A stretch of DNA of 37,376 nt from Nemertoderma westbladi (Eukaryota > Animalia > Xenacoelomorpha). The translations under genes were made by a program, and so were the position numbers. The notes beneath the pieces are model-generated. The model did not search any database. It was not told where the DNA came from and saw only the letters and a list, made by a program, of their open reading frames with translations. Location of the stretch: NCBI GenBank assembly GCA_032718475.1, contig JAUCBJ010002467.1, forward strand, positions 1 to 37,376, given 5' to 3'. Positions 4,496 through 36,936 of this stretch are shown here, one piece after another. Every line of letters begins with the position of its first letter. Position 1 is the stretch's first letter.

Positions 4496-5499
4496 GTTAA
4501 CCGTTAAGACAGTTCATCGGATAGCTTCCCTGTAGTAATAAATTTACTGTTGAAAATGAACAAATGGTACAGGTAGGCCTACATGTTATGTTACCTTCAA
4601 CCTTCACAATAAACTTACATCACCGGAATTCCTATCTTATGACGCAATTTTTAACAAATTTATTTCAGACACACCTCACATATTTTTGCTGGAGACGATT
4701 ATGTATAGTTAGTTATAGAATATATTTAGCTGTAAGATGAAATTAATAACATCCATTGTAATTATGGCATATGGTGTATTAAAGGTATTAAGATACAACA
4801 AGGAATTTAAGATTTATGTTGATGTAATGGTATATTATTGAATTATTATTTTTAAAATCAATTTAACTGTACCAAACTTCATTATCGTTACGATATAGCG
4901 CACTTTATAACTTGAAACCGGCGCAGTTCCCATTGGAATAATATTGAGTAAAAACGTTCTGGAACACACCCCTGGAGGATCGAAAATCGTGTTGATGTTT
5001 CATAAAACTCAAGTGGTGTAGAATTTGGTAACTTTTAGGAAAAACCCCAATGATGCTAGTTGTTCATCAGTCGCAATATTGATGACAACAATATTACCTA
5101 CCCGAATCAGTTAAAAACATATACTATATAGGTAGGTATATTTCTATTCAAAGTATCACAGATCTATATAGTACAGTTATAGACAGTGTAGACCTACATC
5201 ATTTATTTCAATTTTCTATATTGCGCTGACTGTTTGAATTGAAATATAGGCTGGACGGGTCACAAAACCATCACTACTTCTGGCGGGATATATCATCCCG
5301 TAAAAAATTCCAATCAATCTTAAAACAGGGACATAAATTCGACAGAAAACATAGTCAAATAGAATATTATTCATAATTCCTCTTCTATCTTCGCTTAAAT
5401 AATATTCAATAATACTATACGAATAATATAATATTCCATTGGTATCCAACACAATCAGTCGTAAAAAACCTCTAACACGTATTTCTTAAAAACGTATAT

Positions 5500-5540
5500 T
5501 TTAGTTTAATGATACCCAAATAATGTTAAACTACTTAATT
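5500..5540 (+). promoter_or_regulatory. Putative snRNA proximal sequence element (PSE) of U4 copy 1
   Basis: TTTAATGATACCCAA(A/T)TAATGTTAAACTACTT at about -63 to -31 is conserved upstream of both U4 copies, and similarity ends just beyond it. Confidence 0.55.
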
Positions 5541-5568
5541 TAAGTACAAGGGTGGAGGTTGTTTAGGT

Positions 5569-5709
5569 ATCTTTGCGCAGAGGCAGTATCGTAGCCGATG
5601 AGGTTTAACCGAGGCGCGATTATTGCTAATTGAAAACTATTCCCAATAACCCGCCCTGGGGAAACTTCGGTGGAACCAGGAGCAATTTGTGTGGGGCCCT
5701 CGGGGTACC
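5569..5709 (+). ncRNA. U4: U4 spliceosomal snRNA
   Basis: ATCTTTGCGCAGAGGCAGTATCGTAGCCGATGAGGTTTAACCGAGGCGCGATTATTGCTAATTGAAAAC matches the metazoan U4 5' half (U6-pairing stems, kink-turn). Sm-like site AATTTGTG at 5684-5691, terminal hairpin, 141 nt. Confidence 0.96.
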
Positions 5710-5814
5710 TGTATAATATAAAACAATGTACCATAACCGTCTAACTCTCTCTACCTGTATAATATACAGAGATTATCGCCTGTCCCAGAAGGTGATATAC
5801 GGTTATAAAACCTG

Positions 5815-8133: not shown

Positions 8134-8847
8134 TTATTTTTCTGAGAATTAGATTCAGCTCAGAATTCTGTGCTTCTGTACGGAAGTTTCAGACTTTGGC
8201 CCAGGAACATCTGATGGCCTTGGTTATAAGAACGTAAATCTATTAACTTGTCATTTGACTTACTTAACTGCACATGCATTATGACTTGTAACACATATTG
8301 ACTGTTCAGCGCACTGTTTTACTTCTGTTTCATATTGTATTAATTGTTGTTTATATTAATGGATGTTATATTTGGAGAATACCGATAAATAATCATAAAC
8401 CCCTCAATCTTATTGATTACTGAGGTAAGAGGAAAAGAGTATACCGGTAGCAACTGCGACTTAAATTATAGTGGTTTTGTGTGAATTAAATGCTATTTCA
8501 TAATCCTTACGTGTGTCAGTTGCAATCCTCCTTATATATGATCAAATTCAGTGAGGGTCGGCAATTTAGTGTGAAGTAGTGTGAAGTCGTGTGAAAGTCA
8601 ATAAAGCATCTCCTAAAGAATGCGCTATTTACGAAACTCTGTGGCCATCTAGTTGTGATTATAGTATAAGTCATAACTCTGTTTTTATACTTAAAGCGCC
8701 ACGTCCTAAAGGAACTGTTAATATTTCCCCGAAAGTAAATATACTGTAGTTGTCAGAGATTATATACAGTAGTAGCGATCAATCGAATAATACAGAGTAG
8801 TCTACACCGCAATACTTCCCAGGGAACCCGAATCCAGTCTCCCCTGT

Positions 8848-10755
8848 AGAAGGTCGAGCGAACTCGGACAGTGTAAATGAGATCCTTCCAGGCTTTCCGA
8901 TTCTCCAACTACTACTAGGTCGAGCGAACTCGGACAATGGAAATGAGATCCTTCCAGGCTTCCCGATTCTACTACTACTAGAAGGTCGAGCGAACTCGGA
9001 CAGTGTAAATGAGATCCTTCCAGGCTTCCCGATTCTCCAACTACTACTAGGTCGAGCGAGCTCGGACAGTGGAAATGAGATCCTTCCAGGCTTCCCGATT
9101 CTCCAACTACTACTAGAGCGAGCGAGCTCGGACAGTGGAAATGAGATCCTTCCCGGCTTCCCGATTCTCCAACTACTACTAGGTCGAGCGAACTCGGACA
9201 ATGGAAATGAGATCCTTCCAGGCTTCCCGATTCTCCATAGTTGTCGCAATTTCATTTCTCCAAGTTCAGTATCCCTTTCAAGTTGATCTATATATGTTAT
9301 GGCCGGTCGTCCACGACTACGCTTTCCATGAGTTGGTTGCCAGAAAAGTAGATCTGGTATGACCTCGTCTTTACTTCGCCAGCAGTGCCCACTGAATCTT
9401 AATCTGCGTTCACGGAGGGTGGTTGATACAGGCGGTGTTGTACCATAAAGCTCGGCGTTTGTCATGTGCTGTCTCCAGCTGATGTTTAGGGCTGCCCTCA
9501 GTAGTCTTGTGTAGCAACCATCAATTCGTTGTTCAAATGATTTAGTCAGTGTCCAGGTCTCACCCCCGTATAAAAATACACTTTCCACTGTGGCACGAAA
9601 GAACTTAGTCTTCAGAGCCTGGAGAGATCTGATTTCCAGATGAAGCCTTTGCTTTCCTAACTTGTCCTTTTTGCTACTCTATATCCCTTGGAAGTCATCG
9701 ACCTTCCTCAGTTGATTATTATCAATGGTTGTCAAGTTTCCATCAACATTAAAGGTCATGAATTCGGTCTTGGTAGCATTTATATGCAATACAACCTCCT
9801 TAGCAGCCCTCTCCACTTTATTTAGTAGAAGCTGTGCATCTGCTAGCGTATTAGAGAGCGGCGATGTCACCCGCAAATCGATCGGTGTCCGAAGACACAT
9901 CGGTGTCTGTGACTGTAGTTGCCGGACATCTACTACAGTAGCCTACTTCTGCGTTCTTGAAGTGTGAATCCCAGATCTTCACCATTTGTGGCCGTCCTCA
10001 TTGCGTAATCCAGCACAATTACAAATAGTAATGATGCTAATGTGTCACCTTGCAGTACGCCAGCCAGGATTGAGAAAAACTCAGTTTCACCATCTAGTGA
10101 GAGTACCTGTGCTTCTGTGTCACAATATAACAATCCAATTACGCAACAATTACTTCTGGTATTCCATAAGCTCTTAGGATTTCAAGCATTTTACCTCTAT
10201 GGATGGAGTCGAATGCCTTCTTGAAGTCCACAAACGTCATGACTGCGGGGAGATTCTTTGACTTAATTCCTTCATTCAGTCTCCGTAGTGCAAGTATCTG
10301 AGCTATTGTTGATCTACTTGGTCGAAATCCGTTTTGGCTCTTACACAGAAGTTTCTCTATGTGAGGCCTAATCCTATATAGAATCATTTTATTGTATATT
10401 TTGGCAGCTACCACAAGCAGACAGACCCCACGATAGTTTGTTGGTATACCGAGGTCTCCTTTCTTGGGGAGAGGCTTTAGTTGACCTTTAGTCCAAATTG
10501 GTGGTGGCTTTCCCCTTTTTAACATCCGGTTGCAAACATTCAATAATGGTCTGTTTAGCACTCCTGTTTTCCATACCTCCGCTGGGATTTCATCTAATCC
10601 ACTCGCTTTATTATTGGACATGCTTTTAATGCTTCTTTGGAGTTCGGCAGGTGTGAAGTCCCCTGTTTCTATAGGTAGTGTCTTGTCATATATTTTCCTT
10701 GTAGGGCTGACCTCGATGTTTGGTGGCTGCCCAAGCAAGCTGCTGAAGTGAATTG
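8848..10755 (-). mobile_element. 5'-truncated, disabled RTE-clade non-LTR retrotransposon (reverse transcriptase)
   Basis: ORF pieces 10139-10738 (NYRGVCLL, QNGFRPSRST, FVDFKKAFDS), 9933-10133 (GVLQGDTLAS), 9679-9900 (LHINATKTE) and 8779-9588 (LYGGETW, RRLRFSGH, RGRP). Frameshifts and stops are present, the YADD region is disrupted, and the tail is (TAG)n. Confidence 0.93.
8852..9237 (-). repeat. 66-bp tandem repeat x6 of the RTE 3' terminus including its (TAG)n tail
   Basis: Units start at 8852, 8918, 8984, 9050, 9116 and 9182, separated by CTACTACTA. Confidence 0.93.
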
Positions 10756-11737
10756 TCTATGATATCTAGAACACAACACCTAAAACGGAAATGTTAATAC
10801 TTACCCCTTAAGTGAACATAATTGTTAGGAATTATACAATGAGAATCAATCGAATGATACATAACCAGCCCAATTCTAGTAAGCCGATATATTTCAGGCT
10901 CCCATTAAAGGTGGGTCATACGCTGCGCTAACTGATTTATATCTGATGTTAAAACGTTTGGCAAACTTAAGCAAAATTTCTGTGATAATAAAATTTGACG
11001 GTGAAAATTATCTAACTCAAAAGCGCGAACAGGTGTAAATGCAGAAGTGTAGGCGTGTGTAAGTGTCGGCGTAGCTTTTACCCCCATTTTTTATTTGGTT
11101 TTATAAATATTTTTAAACTAGTTAAAAAATTTAGAAATTGTCATTTTTATTTATAAATTTCACTAAAATATTTAGAAGAAAAAACGCTGCTCTGATATAC
11201 CGGTACAGTATTTACATATTTTAATTAAAAAATAAACTATTACCAGTATTGATTGTGAAACCTTTTCCATAAATACGTGGAAGGACGGCACATCCATTCC
11301 TAAGTTTCCATAATTACTGTACTTATCATATATAACCAAGTTCAATTCAACACAACACAGTAGTAAAGTAGTAAACTCGAACTCCATAGCATTAATCCAA
11401 ATAGGGAAATATACTGTAGATATCTATCCATAATCACTATTCATAACAAACGGACTTTGGTCAACTTCCCAGACAGGCTGTAAGCCGTACAGCAGTAGCA
11501 GTCTGCCACTCGCCACTACTGCAAGCAGCACTGCCAGTACGCAGTACAGCAGTAACCCAGCTCTGTACACTACAGCACAGCACTACATCGCATTTAAATT
11601 ACAATACTGCAATACAGCAATAGGCCTACTTCAGTACTTATTGTACCGGTACCACACTTCCTGTACTTCAGTAGGCCCTACTTCAGTACTTACTACTGCA
11701 GCAATAGGACGACTAAGCACAAACAAACCCTGAAAAT

Positions 11738-12259
11738 ATGGCAAGTAAGGCGGCAGCTTCGAAACGGGCTGGAGGTAAGAAACGCGTACAACGCGCGACT
11801 AGTAATGTATTCGCTATGTTCGATCAGAATCAAATACAAGAGTTTAAAGAGGCCTTCAACATGATAGACCAAAACCATGACGGGTTTATTAATAAGGATG
11901 ATCTAAGAGATATGTTGTTCTCTTTGGGCAAGGAGCCCGGAGATTCTTATCTGGATGACATGATTAACGAAGCTCCTGGGCCTATCAACTTCACAATGTT
12001 CCTAACCCTATTCGGGGAGCGCCTGCAGGGCACAGACCCTGAAGAAGTCATCAGAAATGCATTCTCTAACTTCGATGACGATCTTACAGGAATTATTCCG
12101 GAGGAGAACTTGCGTGAGTTGCTGATGACTATGGGCGATCGGTTTACGGAAGACGAAGTCGACGAGATGTTCCGAGACGCCCCGATAGATAAACAAGGAG
12201 GATTTAATTACCCGGAATTCACAAAGATCCTTAAACACGGAGTTAAAGAAAAGGAATAG
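11738..12259 (+). CDS. MYL12: Myosin II regulatory light chain (non-muscle/smooth type; MYL12/MYL9/sqh family), intronless CDS, 173 aa
   Basis: [17 protein letters not shown] phosphorylation motif, EF-hand [39 protein letters not shown]-terminal [11 protein letters not shown] intact from ATG to TAG. Confidence 0.97.
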
Positions 12260-16334: not shown

Positions 16335-17570
16335 ATGGGTTGTAAAGGCTTTTGCGGAATTAGCTAGTCATTTTCCCCGCAAAGTACTCTGTAGGTGTTT
16401 TAGCGGACATAAAAAGCCGTTTCCTTACTGTACCGGTGTTTTAGTGGACATAAAAAGCCATTTCTTCTGTATGTGTACTTTAGCGGACATAACTAGCGAT
16501 TTTATGTCGCAATACGCCAAAATACTCTTGATACAGTGTAAGTTCAGATGACGACATCTATCAGCTGATATGTCCACGTGTAACTTTTTCTTTGTTCTTT
16601 GTTCGGTCGACCAATCAGAGCGATTTTCATTTTATTTGTACAGAAACCTCCGGGAAATCGCGCAATGCATTATGGTTTATGTTTACCTTTTTTCCTAAGC
16701 CTAGAACATCGGCTATGGAATTATTCTGTGTTTCAGACTTTAGCCAAACATTAGAACGGCTTTGATTATAGAAACGTATAACTGTTATCATATTGTCACA
16801 AACTGCATACAGCCCATATCATACCATACATACCTTTCACCGCATTATTTTACTGCTATTTACTGTCGGTTATTAATTGTATCAGTTGATGGAATATTGT
16901 TATATTTGGAGAATATCGATAAATAATCATAAAACCCCCAATCTTCTTGATATACTGAAGGTGAGAGACCGGTTACATATAGCAATTGCGACTTACATTA
17001 TAGTGGTTTTGGAGTGAATCTAATGCTATTTCATAGGCCCTACATGTATCGGTTGCTGTTCTCTTTATATGTGACTAAAATTAGTGAAGGTCGGCAGATC
17101 GGTGTGCAGCATTGTGCGGTAGTGTGCATGAATGTGATAGATAACAAAGCATCTCCTAAAGAATGCGCTTTATACGTGAATCAATAGCCATCCTGTTGTG
17201 TTTAGTGTAAGTCATAACTCTGTTTACATACTTAGAGCGCCACGTCCTAAAGGAACTGTTGATATTTCCCGAAAGTGAATAATATTTGTCAGAGATTATA
17301 TATTAACGATCAATCGAATAATACAGTAGGCCTACACCGCAATAAGGTCAGAGCTTCCGAATCCAGTCTCCCGGGTAAATCCAGCGGGTGAATGGTCGCG
17401 CATAGGCTGGCTTCGGCTAATGTAGTGCATCAAATACTTGTCATAGGCTAAAGTCGATTTATAACCTAGAAGACACCTAAATTTGGCAGGTTAAACTGCT
17501 AAAGGTCTAAAAGCGCGAACATGGGTCTTATGTCAAAAGTCGTTTTCAGATTTTGTCTGAGTCCGTATGT
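16335..17570. mobile_element. Unclassified non-coding interspersed element, copy 2 (without the nested insertions of copy 1)
   Basis: Collinear with the copy 1 segments. The left end has reiterated TTTAGCGGACATAA motifs and the right end has TATGTCAAAAG motifs, possibly degenerate TIRs. Confidence 0.7.
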
Positions 17571-17757
17571 CAAAAGTATAGGAAGGGATCTTGGGGTCTT
17601 AGCCTCGAATGATAAGTTTATTTTACCGAAAATAACTTATCTTTTATTGGCGCAATTGTAGGACTAATCCTATCACATGCTTTTTTTTTAACCGGGTAGT
17701 GTACAAATTTAGGAATCGCGTAATTTTTCTTGAAATTAATATCTCATATCTCTCCAA

Positions 17758-17800
17758 ACCACGTACGCGTTTCGACCTTACTGGGTCTCATCAGCGTGGT
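17758..17800 (-). ncRNA. Minimal type I hammerhead ribozyme (copy 1)
   Basis: ACCACG-CTGATGA-GACC-CAGTAA-GGTC-GAAA-C-GC-GTA-CGTGGT on the minus strand. The conserved core is complete, stems I and II are perfect, and stem III is the palindrome ACGCGT. Confidence 0.9.
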
Positions 17801-17860
17801 GTCGGATTCGAACCTGGGACCTCGAGGTGGAAGCCGAGACTACAACCACTAGGCCACAGG
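17798..17860 (-). promoter_or_regulatory. tRNA-like Pol III internal promoter (A and B boxes) fused to the hammerhead
   Basis: A box TGGCCTAGTGG (17846-17856), anticodon-arm-like CTCGGCTTCCACCTCGAG, B box GGTTCGAATCC (17804-17814). The acceptor stem does not form, so this is not a functional tRNA. Confidence 0.75.
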
Positions 17861-18014
17861 TTCTTGAGATATGGAGTATTAATTTCAAAGCCAGCTGCCA
17901 TTTTATTAGCCCCTGATTTTTCGATTATTGGTAGTAACAATGTGTTGGCAAGCTGTATTTATCGAGGTGTTTGTTATTATAAATTTACTTCGAGGTTCTA
18001 GGTTCGAATCCGAC

Positions 18015-18057
18015 ACCACGCTGATGAGACCCAGTAAGGTCGAAACGCGTACGTGGT
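18015..18057 (+). ncRNA. Minimal type I hammerhead ribozyme (copy 2)
   Basis: ACCACG 18015-20, CTGATGA 18021-27, stem II GACC/GGTC, GAAA 18042-45, GTA cleavage triplet 18049-51, CGTGGT 18052-57. Preceded by a B box at 18001-18011. Confidence 0.9.
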
Positions 18058-18484
18058 TTGGAGAGATATGAGATATTAATTTCAAGAAAAATTACGCGAT
18101 TCCTAAATTTGTACACTACCCGGTTAAAAAGTACGCATGTGATGGGATTAGTCCTACAATTGCGCCAATAAAAGATAAGTTATTTTCGGTAAAATAAACT
18201 TATCATTCGAGGCTAAGACCCCTAGATCCCTTCCTATAATAAATGTATAATAACAAACACCTCGAAAAATACAGCTTGCCAACACATTGTTACTATCAAT
18301 ATTTTCAAAAGTATAGCTTCCACTGACTGGTAAGTCATAAATCTTTATTAAATAATATAAGATGCATCTCACATTCAATGGAACACTTGAACATTTAATG
18401 GCTTTGCTGCTATCCAAAGTAACCAATCACAGACCTCTTGGCAGAAAGAACGGTGACAAGTTGCCTCATTCCATGAGTCAGGCG

Positions 18485-18608
18485 GCTATTGTACATTGTT
18501 TTATATTATACAGGTAGAGAGAGTTAGACGGTTATTGTACATTGTTTTATATTATACAGCGAGAGAGAGTGAGTTAGGCTGTTATTGTACATTGTTATAT
18601 ATTATACA
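18485..18608 (-). repeat. Three ~47-50-bp tandem copies of the U4 3' flank
   Basis: ATTGTACATTGTT(T/A)TATATTATACAG at about 18487, 18534 and 18584. A related duplication lies at 5707/5753 after U4 copy 1. Confidence 0.85.
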
Positions 18609-18749
18609 GGTACCCCGAGGGCCCCACACAAATTGCTCCTGGTTCCACCGAAGTTTCCCCAGGGCGGGTTATTGGGAATAGTTTTCAATTAGCAATAATC
18701 GCGCCTCGGTTAAACCTCATCGGCTACGATACTGCCTCTGCGCAAAGAT
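18609..18749 (-). ncRNA. U4: U4 spliceosomal snRNA (identical to copy 1)
   Basis: Exact reverse complement of 5569-5709, with a conserved upstream PSE-like region at about 18780-18815. Confidence 0.96.
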
Positions 18750-19076
18750 ACCTAAACAACCTCCACCCATCTACTTCAATCAAGTAGTTTAACATTAATT
18801 GGGTATCATTAAAATAAAATAAATATATGGATACATATTTTACTTATCCGGTACTAATTGTAAAAACATAAGACAACATTTATATATTATAATTTTCATA
18901 AACAATTAATTTAAAATTATTGATAAATAAAAACGTTTTAAATGTTAATAATGTTTGAATAACTTTCTATAATTTATTACCTGATCGTCTCTTAGCGATA
19001 TTTAAAAGAAGGATTGCCTCCCCAAAGTACATTACTTTACACGCCACCTAGCGTCTAATATCGTGAACTAACTAAC

Positions 19077-19248: not shown

Positions 19249-19434
19249 CTAAACATAACAAAACGTCGGTCAAACAATAAACTTGATTACTATCCCATTA
19301 CGAGTTTTACATCGGAAACGGTTTCCAACACTTAATCTACACAAACTCTACATATATTCATATCCTTTCCCCAAACTCCCATTGCCGATATTGAAAACTT
19401 GCTCGTCTATAGGTACCAACAAAGTCTATAGGCA

Positions 19435-21805
19435 CCAAACTTATCGCTTGAGGGCTCGATCAATGTACTTGAGCACAGTGCTTAAACCAAACTTACCGCT
19501 TGAGTGCTCGATCAATGTACTTGAGCACAGTGCTTAAACCATACTTACCGCTTGAGTGCTCGATCAATGTACTGGAGCACAGTGCTTAAACCAAACTTAC
19601 CGCTTGAGTGCTCGATCAATGTACTGGAGCACAGTGCTTAAACCAAACTTACCGCTTGAGTGCTCGATCAATGTACTGGAGCACAGTGCTTAAACCAAAC
19701 TTACAGTTTGAGTGCTCGATCAATGTACTGGAGCACAGTGCTTAAACCAAACTTACCGCTTGAGTGCTCGATCAATGTACTGGAGCACAGTGCTTAAACC
19801 AAACTTACAGTTTGAGTGCTCGATCAATGTACTTGAGCACAGTGCTTAAACCAAACTTACCGCTTGAGTGCTCGATCAATGTACTTGAGCACAGTGCTTA
19901 AACCATACTTACCGCTTGAGTGCTCGATCAATGTACTGGAGCACAGTGCTTAAACCAAACTTACCGCTTGAGTGCTCGATCAATGTACTGGAGCACAGTG
20001 CTTAAACCAAACTTACCGCTTGAGTGCTCGATCAATGTACTGGAGCACAGTGCTTAAACCAAACTTACCGCTTGAGTGCTCGATCAATGTACTGGAGCAC
20101 AGTGCTTAAACCAAACGTACAGTTTGAGTGCTCGATCAATGTACTGGAGCACAGTGCTTAAACCAAACTTACCGCTTGAGTGCTCGATCAATGTACTTGA
20201 GCACAGTGCTTAAACCAAACTTACCGCTTGAGTGCTCGATCAATGTACTGGAGCACAGTGCTTAAACCAAACTTACCGCTTGAGTGCTCGATCAATGTAC
20301 TGGAGCACAGTGCTTAAACCAAACTTACCGTTTGAGTGCTCGATCAATGTACTGGAGCACAGTGCTTAAACCAAACTTACCGCTTGAGTGCTCGATCAAT
20401 GTACTGGAGCACAGTGCTTAAACCAAACTTACCGCTTGAGTGCTCGATCAATGTACTGGAGCACAGTGCTTAAACCAAACTTACCGCTTGAGTGCTCGAT
20501 CAATGTACTGGAGCACAGTGCTTAAACCAAACTTACCGCTTGAGTGCTCGATCAATGTACTGGAGCACAGTGCTTAAACCAAACTTACCGCTTGAGTGCT
20601 CGATCAATGTACTGGAGCACAGTGCTTAAACCAAACTTACCGCTTGAGTGCTCGATCAATGTACTGGAGCACAGTGCTTAAACCAAACTTACCGCTTGAG
20701 TGCTCGATCAATGTACTGGAGCACAGTGCTTAAACCAAACTTACCGCTTGAGTGCTCGATCAATGTACTGGAGCACAGTGCTTAAACCAAACTTACCGCT
20801 TGAGTGCTCGATCAATGTACTGGAGCACAGTGCTTAAACCAAACTTACCGCTTGAGTGCTCGATCAATGTACTGGAGCACAGTGCTTAAACCAAACTTAC
20901 CGCTTGAGTGCTCGATCAATGTACTTGAGCACAGTGCTTAAACCAAACTTACCGCTTGAGTGCTCGATCAATGTACTGGAGCACAGTGCTTAAACCAAAC
21001 TTACCGCTTGAGTGCTCGATCAATGTACTGGAGCACAGTGCTTAAACCAAACTTACCGCTTGAGTGCTCGATCAATGTACTGGAGCACAGTGCTTAAACC
21101 AAACTTACCGCTTGAGTGCTCGATCAATGTACTGGAGCACAGTGCTTAAACCAAACTTACCGCTTGAGTGCTCGATCAATGTACTGGAGCACAGTGCTTA
21201 AACCAAACTTACCGCTTGAGTGCTCGATCAATGTACTGGAGCACAGTGCTTAAACCAAACTTACCGCTTGAGTGCTCGATCAATGTACTGGAGCACAGTG
21301 CTTAAACCAAACTTACCGCTTGAGTGCTCGATCAATGTACTGGAGCACAGTGCTTAAACCAAACTTACCGCTTGAGTGCTCGATCAATGTACTGGAGCAC
21401 AGTGCTTAAACCAAACTTACCGCTTGAGTGCTCGATCAATGTACTGGAGCACAGTGCTTAAACCAAACTTACCGCTTGAGTGCTCGATCAATGTACTGGA
21501 GCACAGTGCTTAAACCAAACTTACAGTTTGAGTGCTCGATCAATGTACTGGAGCACAGTGCTTAAACCAAACTTACAGCTTGAGTGCTCGATCAATGTAC
21601 TGGAGCACAGTGCTTAAACCAAACTTACCGCTTGAGTGCTCGATCAATGTACTGGAGCACAGTGCTTAAACCAAACTTACCGCTTGAGTGCTCGATCAAT
21701 GTACTGGAGCACAGTGCTTAAACCAAACTTACCGCTTGAGTGCTCGATCAATGTACTGGAGCACAGTGCTTAAACCAAACTTACCGCTTGAGTGCTCGAG
21801 GGCTG
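19435..21805 (-). repeat. 52-bp tandem array x45 built from the IQCH exon 3' end plus splice donor
   Basis: Minus-strand unit GTAAGTTTGGTTTAAGCACTGTGCTCCAGTACATTGATCGAGCACTCAAGCG. CCAAAC from 19435 to 21775 spans exactly 45 x 52. Confidence 0.97.
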
Positions 21806-22016
21806 TACTTGAGCACAGTACTCAAGCACATCTTATGATCAGGAAAACGTTTGATCGCATCAGGTACTATAACGGTAAACCGAGAGTCCACGGGACTCTG
21901 GTCATCAGCGTTGCCTGTAGCAACAGCGTTACGTAGGCCCAGAAGACGACTGTAATATTGTTCCATATCCTCTGTGATTGGCACCGGTGAGATGTAAACT
22001 ACATCAACATTGGGAT
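21785..22016 (-). CDS. IQCH: IQCH exon (6th visible): DPNVDVVYISP...HKMCLSTVLKYSPRALKR
   Basis: TTTTAG| acceptor and |GTAAGT donor, phase 1 in and phase 2 out. Resembles IQCH NVIYI..HMCLAT.LMYSPKAIKR. Confidence 0.9.
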
Positions 22017-22040
22017 CTAAAACAGGAAGTAATATTGTAA

Positions 22041-25000
22041 AATTCAATCTGCTGCACCTGTGACCCAGGGTTATTCTGATTGGTTCAGTGTATAATTCAG
22101 TCTGGTGCACCAGTGACCCAGGGTTATTCTGATTGATTCAGTGTATAATTCAGTCTTATGCACCTGTGACCCAGGGTTATTCTGATTGATTCAGTGTATA
22201 ATTCAGTCTTATGCACCTGTGACCCAGGGTTATTCTGATTGGTTCAGTGTATAATTCAGTCTTATGCACCTGTGACCCAGGGTTATTCTGATTGGTTCAG
22301 TGTATAATTCAGTCTGGTGCACCAGTGACCCAGGGTTATTCTGATTGGTTCAGTGTATAATTCAGTCTTATGCACCTGTGACCCAGGGTTATTCTGATTG
22401 GTTCAGTGTATAATTCAGTCTTATGCACCTGTGACCCAGTGTTATTCTGATTGGTTCAGTGTATAATTCAGTCTTATGCACCTGTGACCCAGGGTTATTC
22501 TGATTGGTTCAGTGTATAATTCAGTCTTATGCACCTGTGACCCAGTGTTATTCTGATTGGTTCAGTGTATAATTCAGTCTTATGCACCTGTGACCCAGGG
22601 TTATTCTGATTGGTTCAGTGTATAATTCAGTCTTATGCACCTGTGACCCAGGGTTATTCTGATTGGTTCAGTGTATAATTCAGTCTTATGCACCTGTGAC
22701 CCAGGGTTATTCTGATTGGTTCAGTGTATAATTCAGTCTTATGCACCTGTGACCCAGTGTTATTCTGATTGGTTCAGTGTATAATTCAGTCTTATGCACC
22801 TGTGACCCAGGGTTATTCTGATTGGTTCAGTGTATAATTCAGTCTTATGCACCTGTGACCCAGGGTTATTCTGATTGGTTCAGTGTATAATTCAGTCTTA
22901 TGCACCTGTGACCCAGTGTTATTCTGATTGGTTCAGTGTATAATTCAGTCTTATGCACCTGTGACCCAGGGTTATTCTGATTGGTTCAGTGTATAATTCA
23001 GTCTTATGCACCTGTGACCCAGGGTTATTCTGATTGGTTCAGTGTATAATTCAGTCTTATGCACCTGTGACCCAGGGTTATTCTGATTGGTTCAGTGTAT
23101 AATTCAGTCTTATGCACCTGTGACCCAGGGTTATTCTGATTGGTTCAGTGTATAATTCAGTCTTATGCACCTGTGACCCAGGGTTATTCTGATTGGTTCA
23201 GTGTATAATTCAGTCTTATGCACCTGTGACCCAGGGTTATTCTGATTGGTTCAGTGTATAATTCAGTCTGGTGCACCTGTGACCCAGGGTTATTCTGATT
23301 GGTTCAGTGTATAATTCAGTCTTATGCACCTGTGACCCAGGGTTATTCTGATTGGTTCAGTGTATAATTCAGTCTTATGCACCTGTGACCCAGGGTTATT
23401 CTGATTGGTTCAGTGTATAATTCAGTCTTATGCACCTGTGACCCAGGGTTATTCTGATTGGTTCAGTGTATAATTCAGTCTTATGCACCTGTGACCCAGG
23501 GTTATTCTGATTGGTTCAGTGTATAATTCAGTCTTATGCACCTGTGACCCAGGGTTATTCTGATTGGTTCAGTGTATAATTCAGTCTTATGCACCTGTGA
23601 CCCAGGGTTATTCTGATTGGTTCAGTGTATAATTCAGTCTGGTGCACCTGTGACCCAGGGTTATTCTGATTGGTTCAGTGTATAATTCAGTCTTATGCAC
23701 CTGTGACCCAGGGTTATTCTGATTGGTTCAGTGTATAATTCAGTCTGGTGCACCTGTGACCCAGGGTTATTCTGATTGGTTCAGTGTATAATTCAGTCTT
23801 ATGCACCTGTGACCCAGGGTTATTCTGATTGGTTCAGTGTATAATTCAGTCTTATGCACCTGTGACCCAGGGTTATTCTGATTGGTTCAGTGTATAATTC
23901 AGTCTTATGCACCTGTGACCCAGGGTTATTCTGATTGGTTCAGTGTATAATTCAGTCTTATGCACCTGTGACCCAGGGTTATTCTGATTGGTTCAGTGTA
24001 TAATTCAGTCTGGTGCACCTGTGACCCAGGGTTATTCTGATTGATTCAGTGTATAATTCAGTCTTATGCACCTGTGACCCAGGGTTATTCTGATTGGTTC
24101 AGTGTATAATTCAGTCTTATGCACCTGTGACCCAGGGTTATTCTGATTGGTTCAGTGTATAATTCAGTCTGGTGCACCTGTGACCCAGGGTTATTCTGAT
24201 TGGTTCAGTGTATAATTCAGTCTTATGCACCTGTGACCCAGGGTTATTCTGATTGGTTCAGTGTATAATTCAGTCTTATGCACCTGTGACCCAGGGTTAT
24301 TCTGATTGGTTCAGTGTATAATTCAGTCTTATGCACCTGTGACCCAGGGTTATTCTGATTGGTTCAGTGTATAATTCAGTCTTATGCACCTGTGACCCAG
24401 GGTTATTCTGATTGGTTCAGTGTATAATTCAGTCTGGTGCACCTGTGACCCAGGGTTATTCTGATTGATTCAGTGTATAATTCAGTCTTATGCACCTGTG
24501 ACCCAGGGTTATTCTGATTGGTTCAGTGTATAATTCAGTCTGGTGCACCTGTGACCCAGGGTTATTCTGATTGGTTCAGTGTATAATTCAGTCTTATGCA
24601 CCTGTGACCCAGGGTTATTCTGATTGGTTCAGTGTATAATTCAGTCTTATGCACCTGTGACCCAGGGTTATTCTGATTGATTCAGTGTATAATTCAGTCT
24701 TATGCACCTGTGACCCAGGGTTATTCTGATTGGTTCAGTGTATAATTCAGTCTTATGCACCTGTGACCCAGGGTTATTCTGATTGGTTCAGTGTATAATT
24801 CAGTCTGGTGCACCTGTGACCCAGGGTTATTCTGATTGGTTCAGTGTATAATTCAGTCTGGTGCACCTGTGACCCAGGGTTATTCTGATTGATTCAGTGT
24901 ATAATTCAGTCTTATGCACCTGTGACCCAGGGTTATTCTGATTGGTTCAGTGTATAATTCAGTCTTATGCACCTGTGACCCAGGGTTATTCTGATTGGTT

Positions 25001-28000
25001 CAGTGTATAATTCAGTCTTATGCACCTGTGACCCAGGGTTATTCTGATTGGTTCAGTGTATAATTCAGTCTGGTGCACCTGTGACCCAGGGTTATTCTGA
25101 TTGGTTCAGTGTATAATTCAGTCTGGTGCACCTGTGACCCAGGGTTATTCTGATTGGTTCAGTGTATAATTCAGTCTGGTGCACCTGTGACCCAGGGTTA
25201 TTCTGATTGGTTCAGTGTATAATTCAGTCTTATGCACCTGTGACCCAGGGTTATTCTGATTGGTTCAGTGTATAATTCAGTCTTATGCACCTGTGACCCA
25301 GGGTTATTCTGATTGGTTCAGTGTATAATTCAGTCTGGTGCACCTGTGACCCAGGGTTATTCTGATTGGTTCAGTGTATAATTCAGTCTTATGCACCTGT
25401 GACCCAGGGTTATTCTGATTGGTTCAGTGTATAATTCAGTCTTATGCACCTGTGACCCAGGGTTATTCTGATTGGTTCAGTGTATAATTCAGTCTGGTGC
25501 ACCTGTGACCCAGGGTTATTCTGATTGGTTCAGTGTATAATTCAGTCTGGTGCACCTGTGACCCAGGGTTATTCTGATTGGTTCAGTGTATAATTCAGTC
25601 TTATGCACCTGTGACCCAGGGTTATTCTGATTGGTTCAGTGTATAATTCAGTCTGGTGCACCTGTGACCCAGGGTTATTCTGATTGATTCAGTGTATAAT
25701 TCAGTCTTATGCACCTGTGACCCAGGGTTATTCTGATTGGTTCAGTGTATAATTCAGTCTTATGCACCTGTGACCCAGGGTTATTCTGATTGGTTCAGTG
25801 TATAATTCAGTCTGGTGCACCTGTGACCCAGGGTTATTCTGATTGATTCAGTGTATAATTCAGTCTTATGCACCTGTGACCCAGGGTTATTCTGATTGGT
25901 TCAGTGTATAATTCAGTCTTATGCACCTGTGACCCAGGGTTATTCTGATTGGTTCAGTGTATAATTCAGTCTTATGCACCTGTGACCCAGGGTTATTCTG
26001 ATTGGTTCAGTGTATAATTCAGTCTTATGCACCTGTGACCCAGGGTTATTCTGATTGGTTCAGTGTATAATTCAGTCTTATGCACCTGTGACCCAGGGTT
26101 ATTCTGATTGGTTCAGTGTATAATTCAGTCTTATGCACCTGTGACCCAGGGTTATTCTGATTGGTTCAGTGTATAATTCAGTCTTATGCACCTGTGACCC
26201 AGGGTTATTCTGATTGGTTCAGTGTATAATTCAGTCTTATGCACCTGTGACCCAGGGTTATTCTGATTGGTTCAGTGTATAATTCAGTCTTATGCACCTG
26301 TGACCCAGGGTTATTCTGATTGGTTCAGTGTATAATTCAGTCTTATGCACCTGTGACCCAGGGTTATTCTGATTGGTTCAGTGTATAATTCAGTCTTATG
26401 CACCTGTGACCCAGGGTTATTCTGATTGGTTCAGTGTATAATTCAGTCTTATGCACCTGTGACCCAGGGTTATTCTGATTGGTTCAGTGTATAATTCAGT
26501 CTTATGCACCTGTGACCCAGGGTTATTCTGATTGATTCAGTGTATAATTCAGTCTTATGCACCTGTGACCCAGGGTTATTCTGATTGGTTCAGTGTATAA
26601 TTCAGTCTTATGCACCTGTGACCCAGGGTTATTCTGATTGGTTCAGTGTATAATTCAGTCTTATGCACCTGTGACCCAGGGTTATTCTGATTGGTTCAGT
26701 GTATAATTCAGTCTTATGCACCTGTGACCCAGGGTTATTCTGATTGGTTCAGTGTATAATTCAGTCTGGTGCACCTGTGACCCAGGGTTATTCTGATTGA
26801 TTCAGTGTATAATTCAGTCTTATGCACCTGTGACCCAGGGTTATTCTGATTGGTTCAGTGTATAATTCAGTCTTATGCACCTGTGACCCAGGGTTATTCT
26901 GATTGATTCAGTGTATAATTCAGTCTTATGCACCTGTGACCCAGGGTTATTCTGATTGGTTCAGTGTATAATTCAGTCTTATGCACCTGTGACCCAGGGT
27001 TATTCTGATTGGTTCAGTGTATAATTCAGTCTTATGCACCTGTGACCCAGGGTTATTCTGATTGGTTCAGTGTATAATTCAGTCTTATGCACCTGTGACC
27101 CAGGGTTATTCTGATTGGTTCAGTGTATAATTCAGTCTTATGCACCTGTGACCCAGGGTTATTCTGATTGGTTCAGTGTATAATTCAGTCTTATGCACCT
27201 GTGACCCAGGGTTATTCTGATTGGTTCAGTGTATAATTCAGTCTTATGCACCTGTGACCCAGGGTTATTCTGATTGGTTCAGTGTATAATTCAGTCTTAT
27301 GCACCTGTGACCCAGGGTTATTCTGATTGGTTCAGTGTATAATTCAGTCTTATGCACCTGTGACCCAGGGTTATTCTGATTGGTTCAGTGTATAATTCAG
27401 TCTTATGCACCTGTGACCCAGGGTTATTCTGATTGGTTCAGTGTATAATTCAGTCTTATGCACCTGTGACCCAGGGTTATTCTGATTGGTTCAGTGTATA
27501 ATTCAGTCTTATGCACCTGTGACCCAGGGTTATTCTGATTGGTTCAGTGTATAATTCAGTCTGGTGCACCTGTGACCCAGGGTTATTCTGATTGGTTCAG
27601 TGTATAATTCAGTCTGGTGCACCTGTGACCCAGGGTTATTCTGATTGATTCAGTGTATAATTCAGTCTTATGCACCTGTGACCCAGGGTTATTCTGATTG
27701 GTTCAGTGTATAATTCAGTCTTATGCACCTGTGACCCAGGGTTATTCTGATTGGTTCAGTGTATAATTCAGTCTTATGCACCTGTGACCCAGGGTTATTC
27801 TGATTGGTTCAGTGTATAATTCAGTCTTATGCACCTGTGACCCAGGGTTATTCTGATTGGTTCAGTGTATAATTCAGTCTGGTGCACCTGTGACCCAGGG
27901 TTATTCTGATTGGTTCAGTGTATAATTCAGTCTTATGCACCTGTGACCCAGGGTTATTCTGATTGGTTCAGTGTATAATTCAGTCTGGTGCACCTGTGAC

Positions 28001-31000
28001 CCAGGGTTATTCTGATTGGTTCAGTGTATAATTCAGTCTGGTGCACCTGTGACCCAGGGTTATTCTGATTGGTTCAGTGTATAATTCAGTCTTATGCACC
28101 TGTGACCCAGGGTTATTCTGATTGGTTCAGTGTATAATTCAGTCTTATGCACCTGTGACCCAGGGTTATTCTGATTGGTTCAGTGTATAATTCAGTCTTA
28201 TGCACCTGTGACCCAGGGTTATTCTGATTGGTTCAGTGTATAATTCAGTCTTATGCACCTGTGACCCAGGGTTATTCTGATTGGTTCAGTGTATAATTCA
28301 GTCTTATGCACCTGTGACCCAGGGTTATTCTGATTGGTTCAGTGTATAATTCAGTCTTATGCACCTGTGACCCAGGGTTATTCTGATTGGTTCAGTGTAT
28401 AATTCAGTCTTATGCACCTGTGACCCAGGGTTATTCTGATTGATTCAGTGTATAATTCAGTCTTATGCACCTGTGACCCAGGGTTATTCTGATTGGTTCA
28501 GTGTATAATTCAGTCTTATGCACCTGTGACCCAGGGTTATTCTGATTGGTTCAGTGTATAATTCAGTCTTATGCACCTGTGACCCAGGGTTATTCTGATT
28601 GGTTCAGTGTATAATTCAGTCTTATGCACCTGTGACCCAGGGTTATTCTGATTGGTTCAGTGTATAATTCAGTCTTATGCACCTGTGACCCAGGGTTATT
28701 CTGATTGGTTCAGTGTATAATTCAGTCTTATGCACCTGTGACCCAGGGTTATTCTGATTGGTTCAGTGTATAATTCAGTCTTATGCACCTGTGACCCAGG
28801 GTTATTCTGATTGGTTCAGTGTATAATTCAGTCTTATGCACCTGTGACCCAGGGTTATTCTGATTGGTTCAGTGTATAATTCAGTCTGGTGCACCTGTGA
28901 CCCAGGGTTATTCTGATTGGTTCAGTGTATAATTCAGTCTTATGCACCTGTGACCCAGGGTTATTCTGATTGGTTCAGTGTATAATTCAGTCTTATGCAC
29001 CTGTGACCCAGGGTTATTCTGATTGGTTCAGTGTATAATTCAGTCTTATGCACCTGTGACCCAGGGTTATTCAGATTGGTTCAGTGTATAATTCAGTCTG
29101 GTGCACCAGTGACCCAGGGTTATTCTGATTGGTTCAGTGTATAATTCAGTCTGGTGCACCTGTGACCCAGGGTTATTCAGATTGGTTCAGTGTATAATTC
29201 AGTCTGGTGCACCTGTGACCCAGGGTTATTCTGATTGGTTCAGTGTATAATTCAGTCTTATGCACCTGTGACCCAGGGTTATTCAGATTGGTTCAGTGTA
29301 TAATTCAGTCTGGTGCACCAGTGACCCAGGGTTATTCTGATTGGTTCAGTGTATAATTCAGTCTGGTGCACCTGTGACCCAGGGTTATTCTGATTGGTTC
29401 AGTGTATAATTCAGTCTTATGCACCTGTGACCCAGTGTTATTCTGATTGGTTCAGTGTATAATTCAGTCTTATGCACCTGTGACCCAGGGTTATTCTGAT
29501 TGGTTCAGTGTATAATTCAGTCTTATGCACCTGTGACCCAGGGTTATTCTGATTGGTTCAGTGTATAATTCAGTCTTATGCACCTGTGACCCAGGGTTAT
29601 TCTGATTGGTTCAGTGTATAATTCAGTCTTATGCACCTGTGACCCAGGGTTATTCTGATTGGTTCAGTGTATAATTCAGTCTTATGCACCTGTGACCCAG
29701 GGTTATTCTGATTGGTTCAGTGTATAATTCAGTCTTATGCACCTGTGACCCAGGGTTATTCTGATTGATTCAGTGTATAATTCAGTCTTATGCACCTGTG
29801 ACCCAGGGTTATTCTGATTGGTTCAGTGTATAATTCAGTCTTATGCACCTGTGACCCAGGGTTATTCTGATTGGTTCAGTGTATAATTCAGTCTTATGCA
29901 CCTGTGACCCAGGGTTATTCTGATTGGTTCAGTGTATAATTCAGTCTTATGCACCTGTGACCCAGGGTTATTTTGATTGGTTCAGTATATAATTCAGTCT
30001 TATGCACCTGTGACCCAGGGTTATTCTGATTGGTTCAGTGTATAATTCAGTCTTATGCACCTGTGACCCAGGGTTATTCTGATTGATTCAGTGTATAATT
30101 CAGTCTTATGCACCTGTGACCCAGGGTTATTCTGATTGGTTCAGTGTATAATTCAGTCTTATGAACCTGTGACCCAGGGTTATTTTGATTGGTTCAGTGT
30201 ATAATTCAGTCTGGTGCACCTGTGACCCAGGGTTATTCTGATTGATTCAGTGTATAATTCAGTCTTATGCACCTGTGACCCAGGGTTATTCTGATTGGTT
30301 CAGTGTATAATTCAGTCTTATGCACCTGTGACCCAGGGTTATTCTGATTGGTTCAGTGTATAATTCAGTCTTATGCACCTGTGACCCAGGGTTATTCTGA
30401 TTGGTTCAGTGTATAATTCAGTCTTATGCACCTGTGACCCAGGGTTATTCTGATTGGTTCAGTGTATAATTCAGTCTTATGCACCTGTGACCCAGGGTTA
30501 TTCTGATTGGTTCAGTGTATAATTCAGTCTTATGAACCTGTGACCCAGGGTTATTTTGATTGGTTCAGTGTATAATTCAGTCTGGTGCACCTGTGACCCA
30601 GGGTTATTCTGATTGGTTCAGTGTATAATTCAGTCTTATGCACCTGTGACCCAGGATTATTCTGATTGGTTCAGTGTATAATTCAGTCTTATGCACCTGT
30701 GACCCAGGGTTATTCTGATTGGTTCAGTGTATAATTCAGTCTTATGCACCTGTGACCCAGGGTTATTCTGATTGGTTCAGTGTATAATTCAGTCTTATGA
30801 ACCTGTGACCCAGGGTTATTTTGATTGGTTCAGTGTATAATTCAGTCTGGTGCACCTGTGACCCAGGGTTATTCTGATTGGTTCAGTGTATAATTCAGTC
30901 TTATGCACCTGTGACCCAGGATTATTCTGATTGGTTCAGTGTATAATTCAGTCTTATGCACCTGTGACCCAGGGTTATTCTGATTGGTTCAGTGTATAAT

Positions 31001-31015
31001 TCAGTCTGCTGCACC
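22041..31015. repeat. 53-bp satellite, ~169 copies (~9 kb), intronic
   Basis: Unit GCACCTGTGACCCAGGGTTATTCTGATTGGTTCAGTGTATAATTCAGTCTTAT with a few recurrent variants (TTAT/TGGT, TTGG/TTGA). No spacers. Confidence 0.99.
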
Positions 31016-31185
31016 TTACCGTAAATGTCACAAACACTCACCGTAAATGTCACAAACACTCACCGTAAATGTCACAAACACTCACCGTAAATGTCACAAA
31101 CACTCACCGTAAATGTCACAAACACTCACCGTAAATGTCACAAACACTCACCGTAAATGTCACAAACACTCACCGTAAATGTCAC
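31015..31185 (-). repeat. 22-bp tandem array x8 built from the IQCH exon 3' end plus splice donor
   Basis: CCGTAAATGTCAC at 31019, 31041 and onward to 31173. Minus-strand unit TTTGTGACATTTACG|GTGAGTG. Confidence 0.96.
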
Positions 31186-31689: not shown

Positions 31690-32280
31690 CTAACTGATCT
31701 AGACTTTGCTGACGACTTAGGGGACTGTCAGAATCACTAGAGGGAGACAAAAGGCTCCTCTGTTTCTATTAATGTAAAATTAAATTAATTAAACTCATTG
31801 GAGCAGGTTGCTTCTAGTGTTGGTCTTTTTGTAAACTCCAACAAGACTAAAATCATGATAGTGAACCTAGACAGCCCTCTATAAATGTCTGATCGTAAGG
31901 GCATAAGCTCTAGGGACGGCTTGCTTGAGCACATGGATGACTTCTGCTACTTGGGATTTGGATCATGGATCCGAAAGTCAGGTGAGGACCTTCGAATACA
32001 TAAGGGAAAGGCACGGGCAGCCTTGAATAGGCTTTCCAGGATTTGGAAGTCACCGAGAATTAATCGGAAACTTAAGGTCCGGTTATTTAGAGCAGCAGTA
32101 GTTCCAGTACTCCTCTATGGGAGTCCATGCTGGGCTCTAACTGCTGGGGACACCAAATCTCTGGATGGCACATTCACAAGAATGCTACGCCGGGTTCATT
32201 GTGTCAAGTACAATGCACACATCTCCAACCAGACACTATATAACATTGGATGTGTTTCATTGGTTCCCCAAGCTTGACAC
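31690..32280 (+). mobile_element. Degenerate RTE-clade LINE fragment (intronic)
   Basis: DLDFADDL near 31696, VNSNKTK, DDFCYLG, LFRAAVVPVLLYG..W, DGTFTRMLR. Confidence 0.85.
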
Positions 32281-35399: not shown

Positions 35400-36305
35400 C
35401 CATGACCTGTAATCATAAAAGTAAAATGGAATAGTGCTTCTTCGGAGCAGTTTAGAATTACCAATGGAGTTAGACAAGGATCGGTGGCTTCACCAATCCT
35501 GTTTTGTGTTATTGTTAACAAGATGATAATCAAGTTGCGTCAATCTGGCGTTGGTTGTCACATTGGTTCAAGGTATTTCGGGATTGTTGTCTATGCAGAC
35601 GACATTCTGCTTCTTTGTCCATCCATTCCGACGGGTCTTCAGTATATGGTTAACCTTTGTTCTGATTTGCCAGAAAAAAACAGAATGAAATTTAGTACCA
35701 ACGTCGATCCTACAAAGAGCAAAACAACCTGTGTTCCATTTGCTGCTAAATGGTCCCCTCCGAGTTTCTAGATCGTGCTCAATGGTGACAAACTTCCATG
35801 GGTAAAAGAAATGAACCATCTCGGCAACATGTTCCACTACTCGAACAAGTTTGATAGAGATCTCTGTCTTAAACGGGGAAGTTTTATCGGGAAGATGAAT
35901 TGTCTCCGCCAAGAATTATTTTTTGCACACCCAGCTACTCAGTCAGAATTGCATAGAGTTTATACAACTAGTTTCTATGGAAACGGATTCTGGGACATCT
36001 TTTTCGGATGCTTGTGTGCGGCTCGTAACTGCTTGGAACAAGAATTTGAGAACTACCTGGAATCTCCCATATAATACACACAGGTGCATCGTTGAACATC
36101 TGAATCCCTTCCAGCATCCTTTTGTCATGCTGTGTTCGAGATTTGTAGGGTTTGCAAAACGACTGTTATTGTCGATTATGAATAAGCCATCGTTATTCTT
36201 CCTTGCGAATCTATGTCTATTCGATTGTAGAATTGTTTCTGGTAGGAACCTATACAATATTGCAGCTAAGGTCAACGTAAACGTGAAGGATCTTAATTTT
36301 TTTTT
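35400..36305 (+). mobile_element. Degenerate non-LTR retrotransposon RT fragment
   Basis: NGVRQGSVASPILF, GVGCHIG, VYADDILLL, KSKT, HLG and YG..FW motifs spread across frameshifted ORFs. Confidence 0.88.
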
Positions 36306-36936
36306 AAACTACACCCCTCTTCGGGGTAATAAAACTTTTATTTCTCAATAAAATTTAAATAAAACCGGTCCAAACTAGAAATACTGTATATACATATGAA
36401 TGATAATAATATGCTAGAGAACAATGTGAGTTATGGTTTATGTATTTGTATTTATGGTACTTTTGTGGTTAGTGGCCCAATGAGGACAACGATGGACATG
36501 ATTTGCATTTGATTGCATGGTATCGATCTTGTGAGCTTTTGTGGCAGTATTTGCAGCAGCATTCAGGAGACAGTTCGTGGAATATAGTTCGTGGAAGGAT
36601 CTTAATACGAACATGTTTAAGAGTGGTTTTGTAATCCTAGCGGATCAGATATAGTTAGGGTTGTAAGAGAATTAGTTGAGTGTCGCTATAACCTGTGTAT
36701 CACCGCGCTTCACAAATGAGGAGCTGGACTATATTATATTAAAGTTTGTTTGTACGTCATAATTCCCTTAACTTAAATTATTATATTGTGCTATTTTTAT
36801 GTATATATTTTTTTATTCTTCTTCCTTTGGTACATTATATTATATTTACTACTACTGTACGTAAGACAATGTGTATTTTTATTTTCTATATTTCCTTTCC
36901 GTATCTGTGTGCTACATTCGTTTGATCGTATGCACG

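Follow-up and report, generated by a model that had tools for sequence, protein, structure and literature searches.

A young 412-nt non-coding family with Pol III boxes and a type I hammerhead in Nemertoderma westbladi, likely spreading as a retrozyme by means of a Penelope-like enzyme

The window, by which we mean the entire 37,376 nt of Nemertoderma westbladi DNA analysed here (contig JAUCBJ010002467.1 of assembly GCA_032718475.1), carries six exons of an IQCH-like gene on the minus strand, running from 34078 to 19071, and the 3' part of the IQCH-like protein was not found in the window. Given the position of these exons and the absence of the 3' part, the insertion described below probably lies within a long intron of this gene, as judged from the sequence. 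Tandem arrays of 52- and 53-nt units (19434-21819 and 22036-31016, 98% matches) fill the IQCH-like introns up to the exon at 21784-22047, and an intronless, intact ORF for a myosin regulatory light chain (11738-12259, plus strand; at most 78% identity to the best relatives listed) is antisense to the gene and probably inside it. Among the named matches, the best were scattered over coral, cephalopods, arthropods and fishes, in keeping with an animal host that is probably an invertebrate. Two U4 snRNA genes, at 5497-5766 (plus) and 18548-18821 (minus), agree throughout their 138-nt coding parts and have in common 72 nt of upstream sequence and, downstream, a repeat unit of 46 nt, possibly as members of a dispersed or mobile U4 cassette. 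Broken fragments of non-LTR retrotransposons with matches to Pfam RVT_1 and DUF6451 were found at 8779-10756 (minus), 35406-36351 (plus) and 31885-32274 (plus), and the two RVT_1 reverse transcriptase (RT) fragments are, we presume from their motifs, LINE-like. A second repeat, of very high copy number, has its end at 17521, which is 49 nt left of the insertion; contigs that end this repeat at the same point with unrelated flanks number 36 in sequencing run X1 and 30 in run X4.

The insertion itself was first noticed at 17577-17987, which the preliminary description took to be a complete unit of about 410 nt. Self-alignment revealed instead that this stretch is the left, inverted arm of a larger insertion and that it contains, on the minus strand, 411 of the 412 nt of a circularly permuted monomer with a GC content of 39%. 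Read in the sense direction the left arm is ordered as tail, spacer, head, hammerhead and body, so that it extends 120 nt upstream of the head, and its folding departs from that of shuffled sequences with z scores of -4.5 as a linear and -4.7 as a circular molecule. The tail at its 5' end is an A/C-rich segment of 62 nt (17926-17987, minus strand) that was delimited by alignment of the two arms; among stretches of 62 nt, the A+C content of the monomer peaks in those that begin at 17975-17980, which makes the tail its most A+C-rich part.

The right arm is a direct copy of 315 nt on the plus strand (17987-18301, from the same alignment). It begins within the head, past the A box, and retains the B box (18001-18011) and the hammerhead (18015-18057), with the predicted cut after GUA at 18051/18052, just where the preliminary description had put it. 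It then crosses the monomer junction at 18238-18240 and continues past the end point of the left arm into a 62-nt tail (18240-18301, plus strand) that equals the start of the left arm, and the 62-nt tail stands at the outer end of the right arm only.

This head-to-head pair is bracketed by a 12-bp target-site duplication (TSD), TCAAAAGTATAG, a length that none of 5000 random window pairs reached. The left copy (17570-17581, plus strand), identified as the longest match between the flanks, shares its final 5 nt with the end of the left arm, an overlap with a chance of about 0.002, and the right copy (18305-18316, plus strand) is preceded by a 3-nt filler of T. The first 6 nt of the right copy equal the continuation of the tail in the majority of the family (taking the majority base at 17922 in X1, X4 and X5), such that target and element RNA match over 5 nt at the left end and 6 nt at the right end.

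An inverted pair of this kind might also be a fold-back chimera of assembly or amplification, or the isolated capture of a tRNA fragment, and consistent with this the exact junction of this locus was not seen in X3, X4, X5 or X7. The empty site was likewise not seen in these runs, and neither absence is informative. However, the arms carry 11 differences over their 314 shared nt and are therefore not a fold-back artefact, the TSD frames both of them, and the head and hammerhead are covered continuously in four runs of four studies. We consider an artefact exceedingly improbable.

The A box, B box and intact type I hammerhead claimed for the minus strand are all present, within 17856-17758, and stem I of the hammerhead starts 3 bases past the B box as claimed. 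The A box, TGGCCTAGTGG (17856-17846), and the B box, GGTTCGAATCC (17814-17804), are of the type 2 Pol III kind and are spaced 31 nt apart; both match the type 2 consensus exactly. A motif search found this pair of boxes once in the window, and none of 100 shuffles yielded one. The last three bases of the B box are also predicted to pair in an extension of stem I.

The head (17810-17863, minus strand) is degenerate and tRNA-derived, and folding predicts a single long hairpin rather than a cloverleaf, with the 5' end of the head pairing with the B box region and the 7 outer pairs at a probability of 1.0. Remnants of a tRNA include a D stem with 3 of 4 pairs, a bulged 4-bp anticodon stem and TCC in the loop. 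The tRNA-like character proposed for the head thus holds for the boxes but does not extend to a foldable tRNA, given that 1 of 7 acceptor pairs and 2 of 5 T-stem pairs can form. ARAGORN reported no tRNA genes, and Rfam gave no tRNA match at E<=1. We rejected a functional tRNA gene for want of a cloverleaf with acceptor and T stems. A 23-nt stem, whose 5' arm at 17866-17888 (minus strand) pairs with 17730-17752 at 87% complementarity, encloses both head and hammerhead and is predicted to join them into one domain. The sense strand has a single T4 run, at 17629-17632 (minus strand), which could act as a stop for Pol III. As one such run compares with 1.4-1.6 expected from shuffles, T4 runs are not depleted, and selection against Pol III stops was rejected.

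The hammerhead of the left arm, together with the stem I extension, occupies 17753-17806 on the minus strand, as defined by Rfam, our own descriptor and folding, with the predicted cut at 17764/17763. Stem I (17800-17795 with 17763-17758) consists of 6 bp plus a 5-bp extension that takes in the final bases of the B box, and is followed by the core CUGAUGA, a 4-bp stem II, GAAA, the palindrome ACGCGU and GUA. The descriptor search found two hammerheads in the window, one in each arm. The Rfam comparison proposed earlier gave weak matches of HH9 to both copies at 26.6 bits (E 0.013), below the gathering score of 52.

Stem III is made up of the 6-nt palindrome only, and its pairing probability as a monomer is 0.0, whereas stems I and II reach 0.76-1.0. 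Cofolding placed the energy minimum at a dimer joined through the palindrome (-44.3 versus -35.2 kcal/mol), and the canonical metazoan type I form is described as needing dimers when helix III is this short (PMC4209133). The same source, in its accessible part, characterizes the minimal hammerhead of Penelope-like elements (PLEs) by a long helix II of 7-8 bp, a short helix I and an unpaired base before helix II. None of these is seen here, where helix II has 4 bp and helix I has 6+5 bp with no extra base, and the predicted ribozyme is not of the minimal PLE type but, by these definitions, is of the 'canonical' metazoan type I form. Were the locus to be read through in a single transcript, the two arms would pair over 252 nt, likely silencing both ribozymes.

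Given a Pol III promoter motif next to a hammerhead, the obvious comparison is with Sm-alpha and Sj-alpha of schistosomes (PMC6765202, PMC2770079), which are described as short, high-copy repeats in which a tRNA-related Pol III promoter likewise precedes the hammerhead. There, as here, the promoter falls at the 3' end of the cut monomer, so that more than one unit is needed. The sequence and the host are different, and in our unit the B box overlaps the stem I extension; cleavage was demonstrated for Sm-alpha, while here it is predicted from the motif. Relative to the available accounts of Sm-alpha, the N. westbladi unit also bears PLE-type marks, namely the tail, the head-to-head pair and the 12-bp TSD. 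The novelty attributed to the combination of Pol III promoter and hammerhead was therefore overrated, since tandem repeats with a promoter followed by a hammerhead had already been described (PMC6765202): the boxes upstream of the hammerhead are there as reported, and what is added is the PLE-like footprint, an interesting extra to a known design. Outside schistosomes, our search of the accessible papers found no hammerhead retroposon with Pol III boxes.

A second group of relatives by design is formed by the metazoan non-LTR retrozymes (PMC7229834, PMC7761336, bioRxiv 10.64898/2026.07.22.740005), which the accessible text describes as non-coding, 150-450 nt long and below 50% GC, with a canonical type I hammerhead, a weak helix III, a highly self-paired predicted circle, TSDs above 4 bp and a proposed dependence on PLEs. 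Our unit resembles them in each of these respects: it is a non-coding 412 nt with GC below 50%, an intact type I core and many copies. Circles and tandem arrays were demonstrated for those retrozymes, whereas the likeness of our unit is one of sequence features. In the available part of PMC7761336 the retrozymes seem to lack a promoter and any motif that would indicate a helper; in contrast, the 412-nt unit carries A and B boxes and a PLE-like tail. The 2026 preprint links retrozymes to PLEs by homology and co-occurrence, and 'Pol III' has 0 occurrences in its accessible text (bioRxiv 10.64898/2026.07.22.740005).

The degenerate tRNA head and the internal A and B boxes are also shared with tRNA-derived SINEs (PMC10886601), and it was not unreasonable to ask whether a LINE had mobilised such a SINE with a 5' inversion, the hammerhead being a passenger or a chance motif. 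The boxes and the TSD are SINE traits, and fragments resembling LINE RTs occur in the window. In contrast to SINEs, as the available text portrays them, the unit is circularly permuted, bears a ribozyme and has no LINE-type 3' tail. Its 5' end is not at the head, as 120 nt upstream were carried along, and no A-rich or simple-repeat end was found. Furthermore, the arms share 314 nt, and the core and stems of the hammerhead are intact and have been kept in a diverged relative in run X7. A LINE-borne SINE is accordingly a very unlikely explanation.

The left arm is present in 7 of the 12 sequencing runs listed, which derive from five studies, and no RNA run is listed among those that carry it. 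Contigs aligned to 17400-17987, a stretch that includes the second repeat ending at 17521, number 4460 in X1 and 1662 in X4, most at 95% identity or above, and 1358 X4 contigs aligned to 17955-18470, of which 346 are partial. The hundreds of distinct junctions point to at least hundreds of copies, summed depth not being a copy number. Sense-strand ORFs do not exceed 36 codons on either arm. The earlier proposal of a self-promoting, self-cleaving family is supported in part, in that this is a non-coding, high-copy retroelement family combining a hammerhead with Pol III boxes.

Sequencing depth does not change over the monomer junction. In X3, the first and last 30 nt of a 441-nt contig are identical, giving a closed 411-nt loop that contains no other sequence. 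This loop shows family units joined end to start with no ORF in between, and it can be a collapsed DNA repeat. It is no proof of circular RNA, because the RNA nature of X3 is a guess and the neighbouring repeat is equally deep: its depth of 21-82 compares with 13.8 for the unit, which is thus not enriched. All closed-loop junctions exist in DNA, and no direct head-to-tail tandem array was seen in the contigs examined. One X5 contig covering the repeat at 17400-17521 is also 441 nt long. Dips in depth at 17917-17922 were considered as a terminus and dropped, as they fall where the window copy has changes of its own.

Among the joints listed, 4 of 15 change strand, at depths of 14-30 that resemble single copies. 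Inversions thus recur, at variable points, and none of these four joints breaks at the start of the tail. Loose ends with unrelated flanks were found in X4, among the matches listed, at 18248 (at least 7 contigs), 18252 (at least 7) and 18301 (at least 22), the last set being mixed with contigs that run on into the spacer, outside the aligned stretch.

These ends bear on the proposal that the unit is the pseudo-LTR and tail of an autonomous PLE with a tRNA-derived promoter, the locus then being a solo inverted pair of pseudo-LTRs. The layout is the same as that of truncated PLE insertions (PMC8557442, PMC3846280), and long, deep contigs of X5 (600-1914 nt) contain fragments of the unit. However, the tail continues into spacer and head both in the left arm and in the closed X3 loop, leaving no space for an ORF beyond the short sense frames noted above, the loose ends have no common continuation (agreement 0.45-0.48), and the hammerhead belongs to the canonical type known from retrozymes. 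Pfam found no GIY-YIG family among the 116 peptides of the window, and no PLE ORF with RT and GIY-YIG domains lies in, after or otherwise adjoining the unit. The preliminary description had named identity with the pLTR of a PLE as the result that would overturn it, and that identity fails for most copies. We therefore regard the autonomous element as an improbable source of most copies, and expect a low-copy autonomous element that shares the tail.

The diverged relative in X7 is identical to the unit at 74 of 75 nt over the B box and hammerhead (binomial 1e-6 against 80% identity) and at 36 of 41 nt at the junction, and the 162 nt between this module and the junction cannot be aligned at 80%. 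Such a pattern suggests either constraint on the B box-hammerhead module or its recent exchange, the B box being confounded with its role in stem I. An X7 contig over 17992-18024 has upstream letters that match the head without gaps at 21 of 30 positions (30 of 104 letters were compared) and carries TTC in place of TCC, an anticodon-like triplet that is presumably of Glu-type origin. The first half of these upstream letters also matches the reversed tail at 14 of 16 positions, which reflects either another head-to-head junction almost at this position or complementarity of tail and head. An X5 contig of 1831 nt over 17990-18084 (depth 401) holds a head-hammerhead piece in which G5, A13 and U16.1 are changed, by its sequence a dead ribozyme apparently within another repeat.

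Scanning for a B box followed by the hammerhead core passed the stem filter in 0 of 120 viral stretches and in 1 of 119 metagenome stretches among the matches listed. The one that passed (L221) was rejected: it is a bacterial-type tRNA in tandem, and its acceptor resembles stem I. Phage-type hammerheads with the same stem II gave 147 matches, 6 of them with a loose B-box-like word upstream, and in these matches no homology beyond the core was found. Family-specific patterns gave 0 matches in the viral and prokaryote collections.

The layout of the insertion is that reported for PLEs, in which an inverted 5' copy, a tail at one end and TSDs of 8-10 bp are described (PMC8557442, PMC3846280), and all three kinds of mark are present at this locus. 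Endonuclease-bearing (EN+) PLEs such as Pen2a of Adineta and Poseidon PAc of the anole likewise show, in the available accounts, AT-rich targets, a hammerhead upstream of an AC-rich tail and extension of both target strands; in vitro, synthesis by the anole enzyme starts at two sites that flank the AC-rich tail (PMC11167929). Compared with these elements, the unit lacks an ORF, possesses tRNA-type boxes and has a tail of 62 rather than 30-40 nt. It also differs from PAc in the microhomology of 5-6 nt between target and RNA at both ends, PAc having been primed without homology (PMC11167929).

Taking the family identity and the PLE-type insertion together, we hold this assignment with confidence. 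We consider it likely, with somewhat less assurance, that this is a young 412-nt non-coding family that spreads as an Sm-alpha-type retrozyme via a PLE enzyme, here caught as a head-to-head insertion bounded by a TSD. By analogy with Sm-alpha (PMC6765202) and animal retrozymes (PMC7229834), Pol III would start in the head, at a locus of more than one unit, and read past the T4 run, as it must if more than one unit is to be transcribed. Two hammerheads would then pair via the stem III palindrome to release a 412-nt monomer that carries the promoter at the 3' end and that a host ligase would close into an RNA circle. A PLE protein would bind the A/C-rich segment and nick the two target strands at a spacing of 12 bp. 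Every target 3' end would prime on the RNA at one of the two sites next to the tail, one on either side, and 5-6 nt of pairing would assist. The left cDNA would make one turn of the circle and stop at its own primer, the right cDNA would stop after 315 nt, and both cDNAs would be joined head to head. Priming by pairing at both ends is suggested by the 5- and 6-nt matches between TSD and RNA, and the ligation and pairing steps are unlike the behaviour of the anole PLE, which primes without target homology and uses uncut RNA (PMC11167929).

Both arms cross the predicted cut site intact, and together with the 120 nt upstream of the head this indicates that the template was either a ligated circle or an uncut multimer. 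In the latter case a linear, uncut Pol III dimer would have been primed twice by the PLE enzyme (twin priming), the hammerhead would be incidental, and circles would be a side product or absent. Several observations would fit such a dimer: the right arm ends some 35 nt downstream of where the head is predicted to begin, as would a copy that had reached the 5' end of a Pol III transcript; the RNA that the anole PLE inserts is unprocessed, with no need for hammerhead cleavage (PMC11167929); and stem III is predicted to be unstable in the monomer hammerhead. At 18213/17602 both arms also carry a minority base (some 6% of the summed X4 depth), which hints weakly at a single source for both arms and would fit one molecule.

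On the other hand, twin priming on a linear dimer predicts that the left cDNA stops near the end of the tail, at the second primer, and in fact it ran 62 nt past this point to within 1 nt of its own priming site, a coincidence with a chance of about 3 in 412. A linear template would also require that two T4 runs be read through and two hammerheads be left uncut. The one-turn stop favours the circle over the linear dimer, as a single case, noticed after the fact and resting on one insertion. On balance we see the linear dimer as a serious possibility that falls short of even, and judge a circular template for the left arm to be an even proposition. The fuller reading, in which the insertion is the genomic footprint of a PLE enzyme that copied circular RNA, with both 3' ends of a 12-nt stagger annealed at sites flanking the tail and a full 412-nt turn completed, is offered tentatively, as plausible rather than probable.

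The transcription of animal retrozymes, and the enzyme responsible for their movement, have so far been argued from homology and co-occurrence. This family unites the motif of a Pol III promoter with the marks of PLE insertion in 412 nt, outside the schistosomes. The known design limits the surprise of the family, which nonetheless offers a small, young, high-copy substrate whose copies can be read for the form of the template (circular or linear), for what the hammerhead contributes and for priming by microhomology. If that fuller reading holds, Pol III-driven, circle-forming and PLE-borne elements would make up a class of retroposons that recurs in animals, and the 412-nt unit would be a minimal test substrate for the origin of head-to-head PLE insertions and their tails.

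Two clusters of substitutions were observed in passing. An X5 contig over 18170-18294 (depth 512) has 10 differences, of which 8 are T-to-C on the sense strand within 18201-18251; this one contig, absent as such from X4, looks like a copy of ADAR hyper-edited antisense or double-stranded RNA (A-to-G on the antisense strand) that was returned to DNA. The private changes of the right arm of the window copy number three, all of them C-to-T, and lie within 17989-17999, at most 11 nt from the inversion junction, where deamination of an exposed single strand may be one reading.
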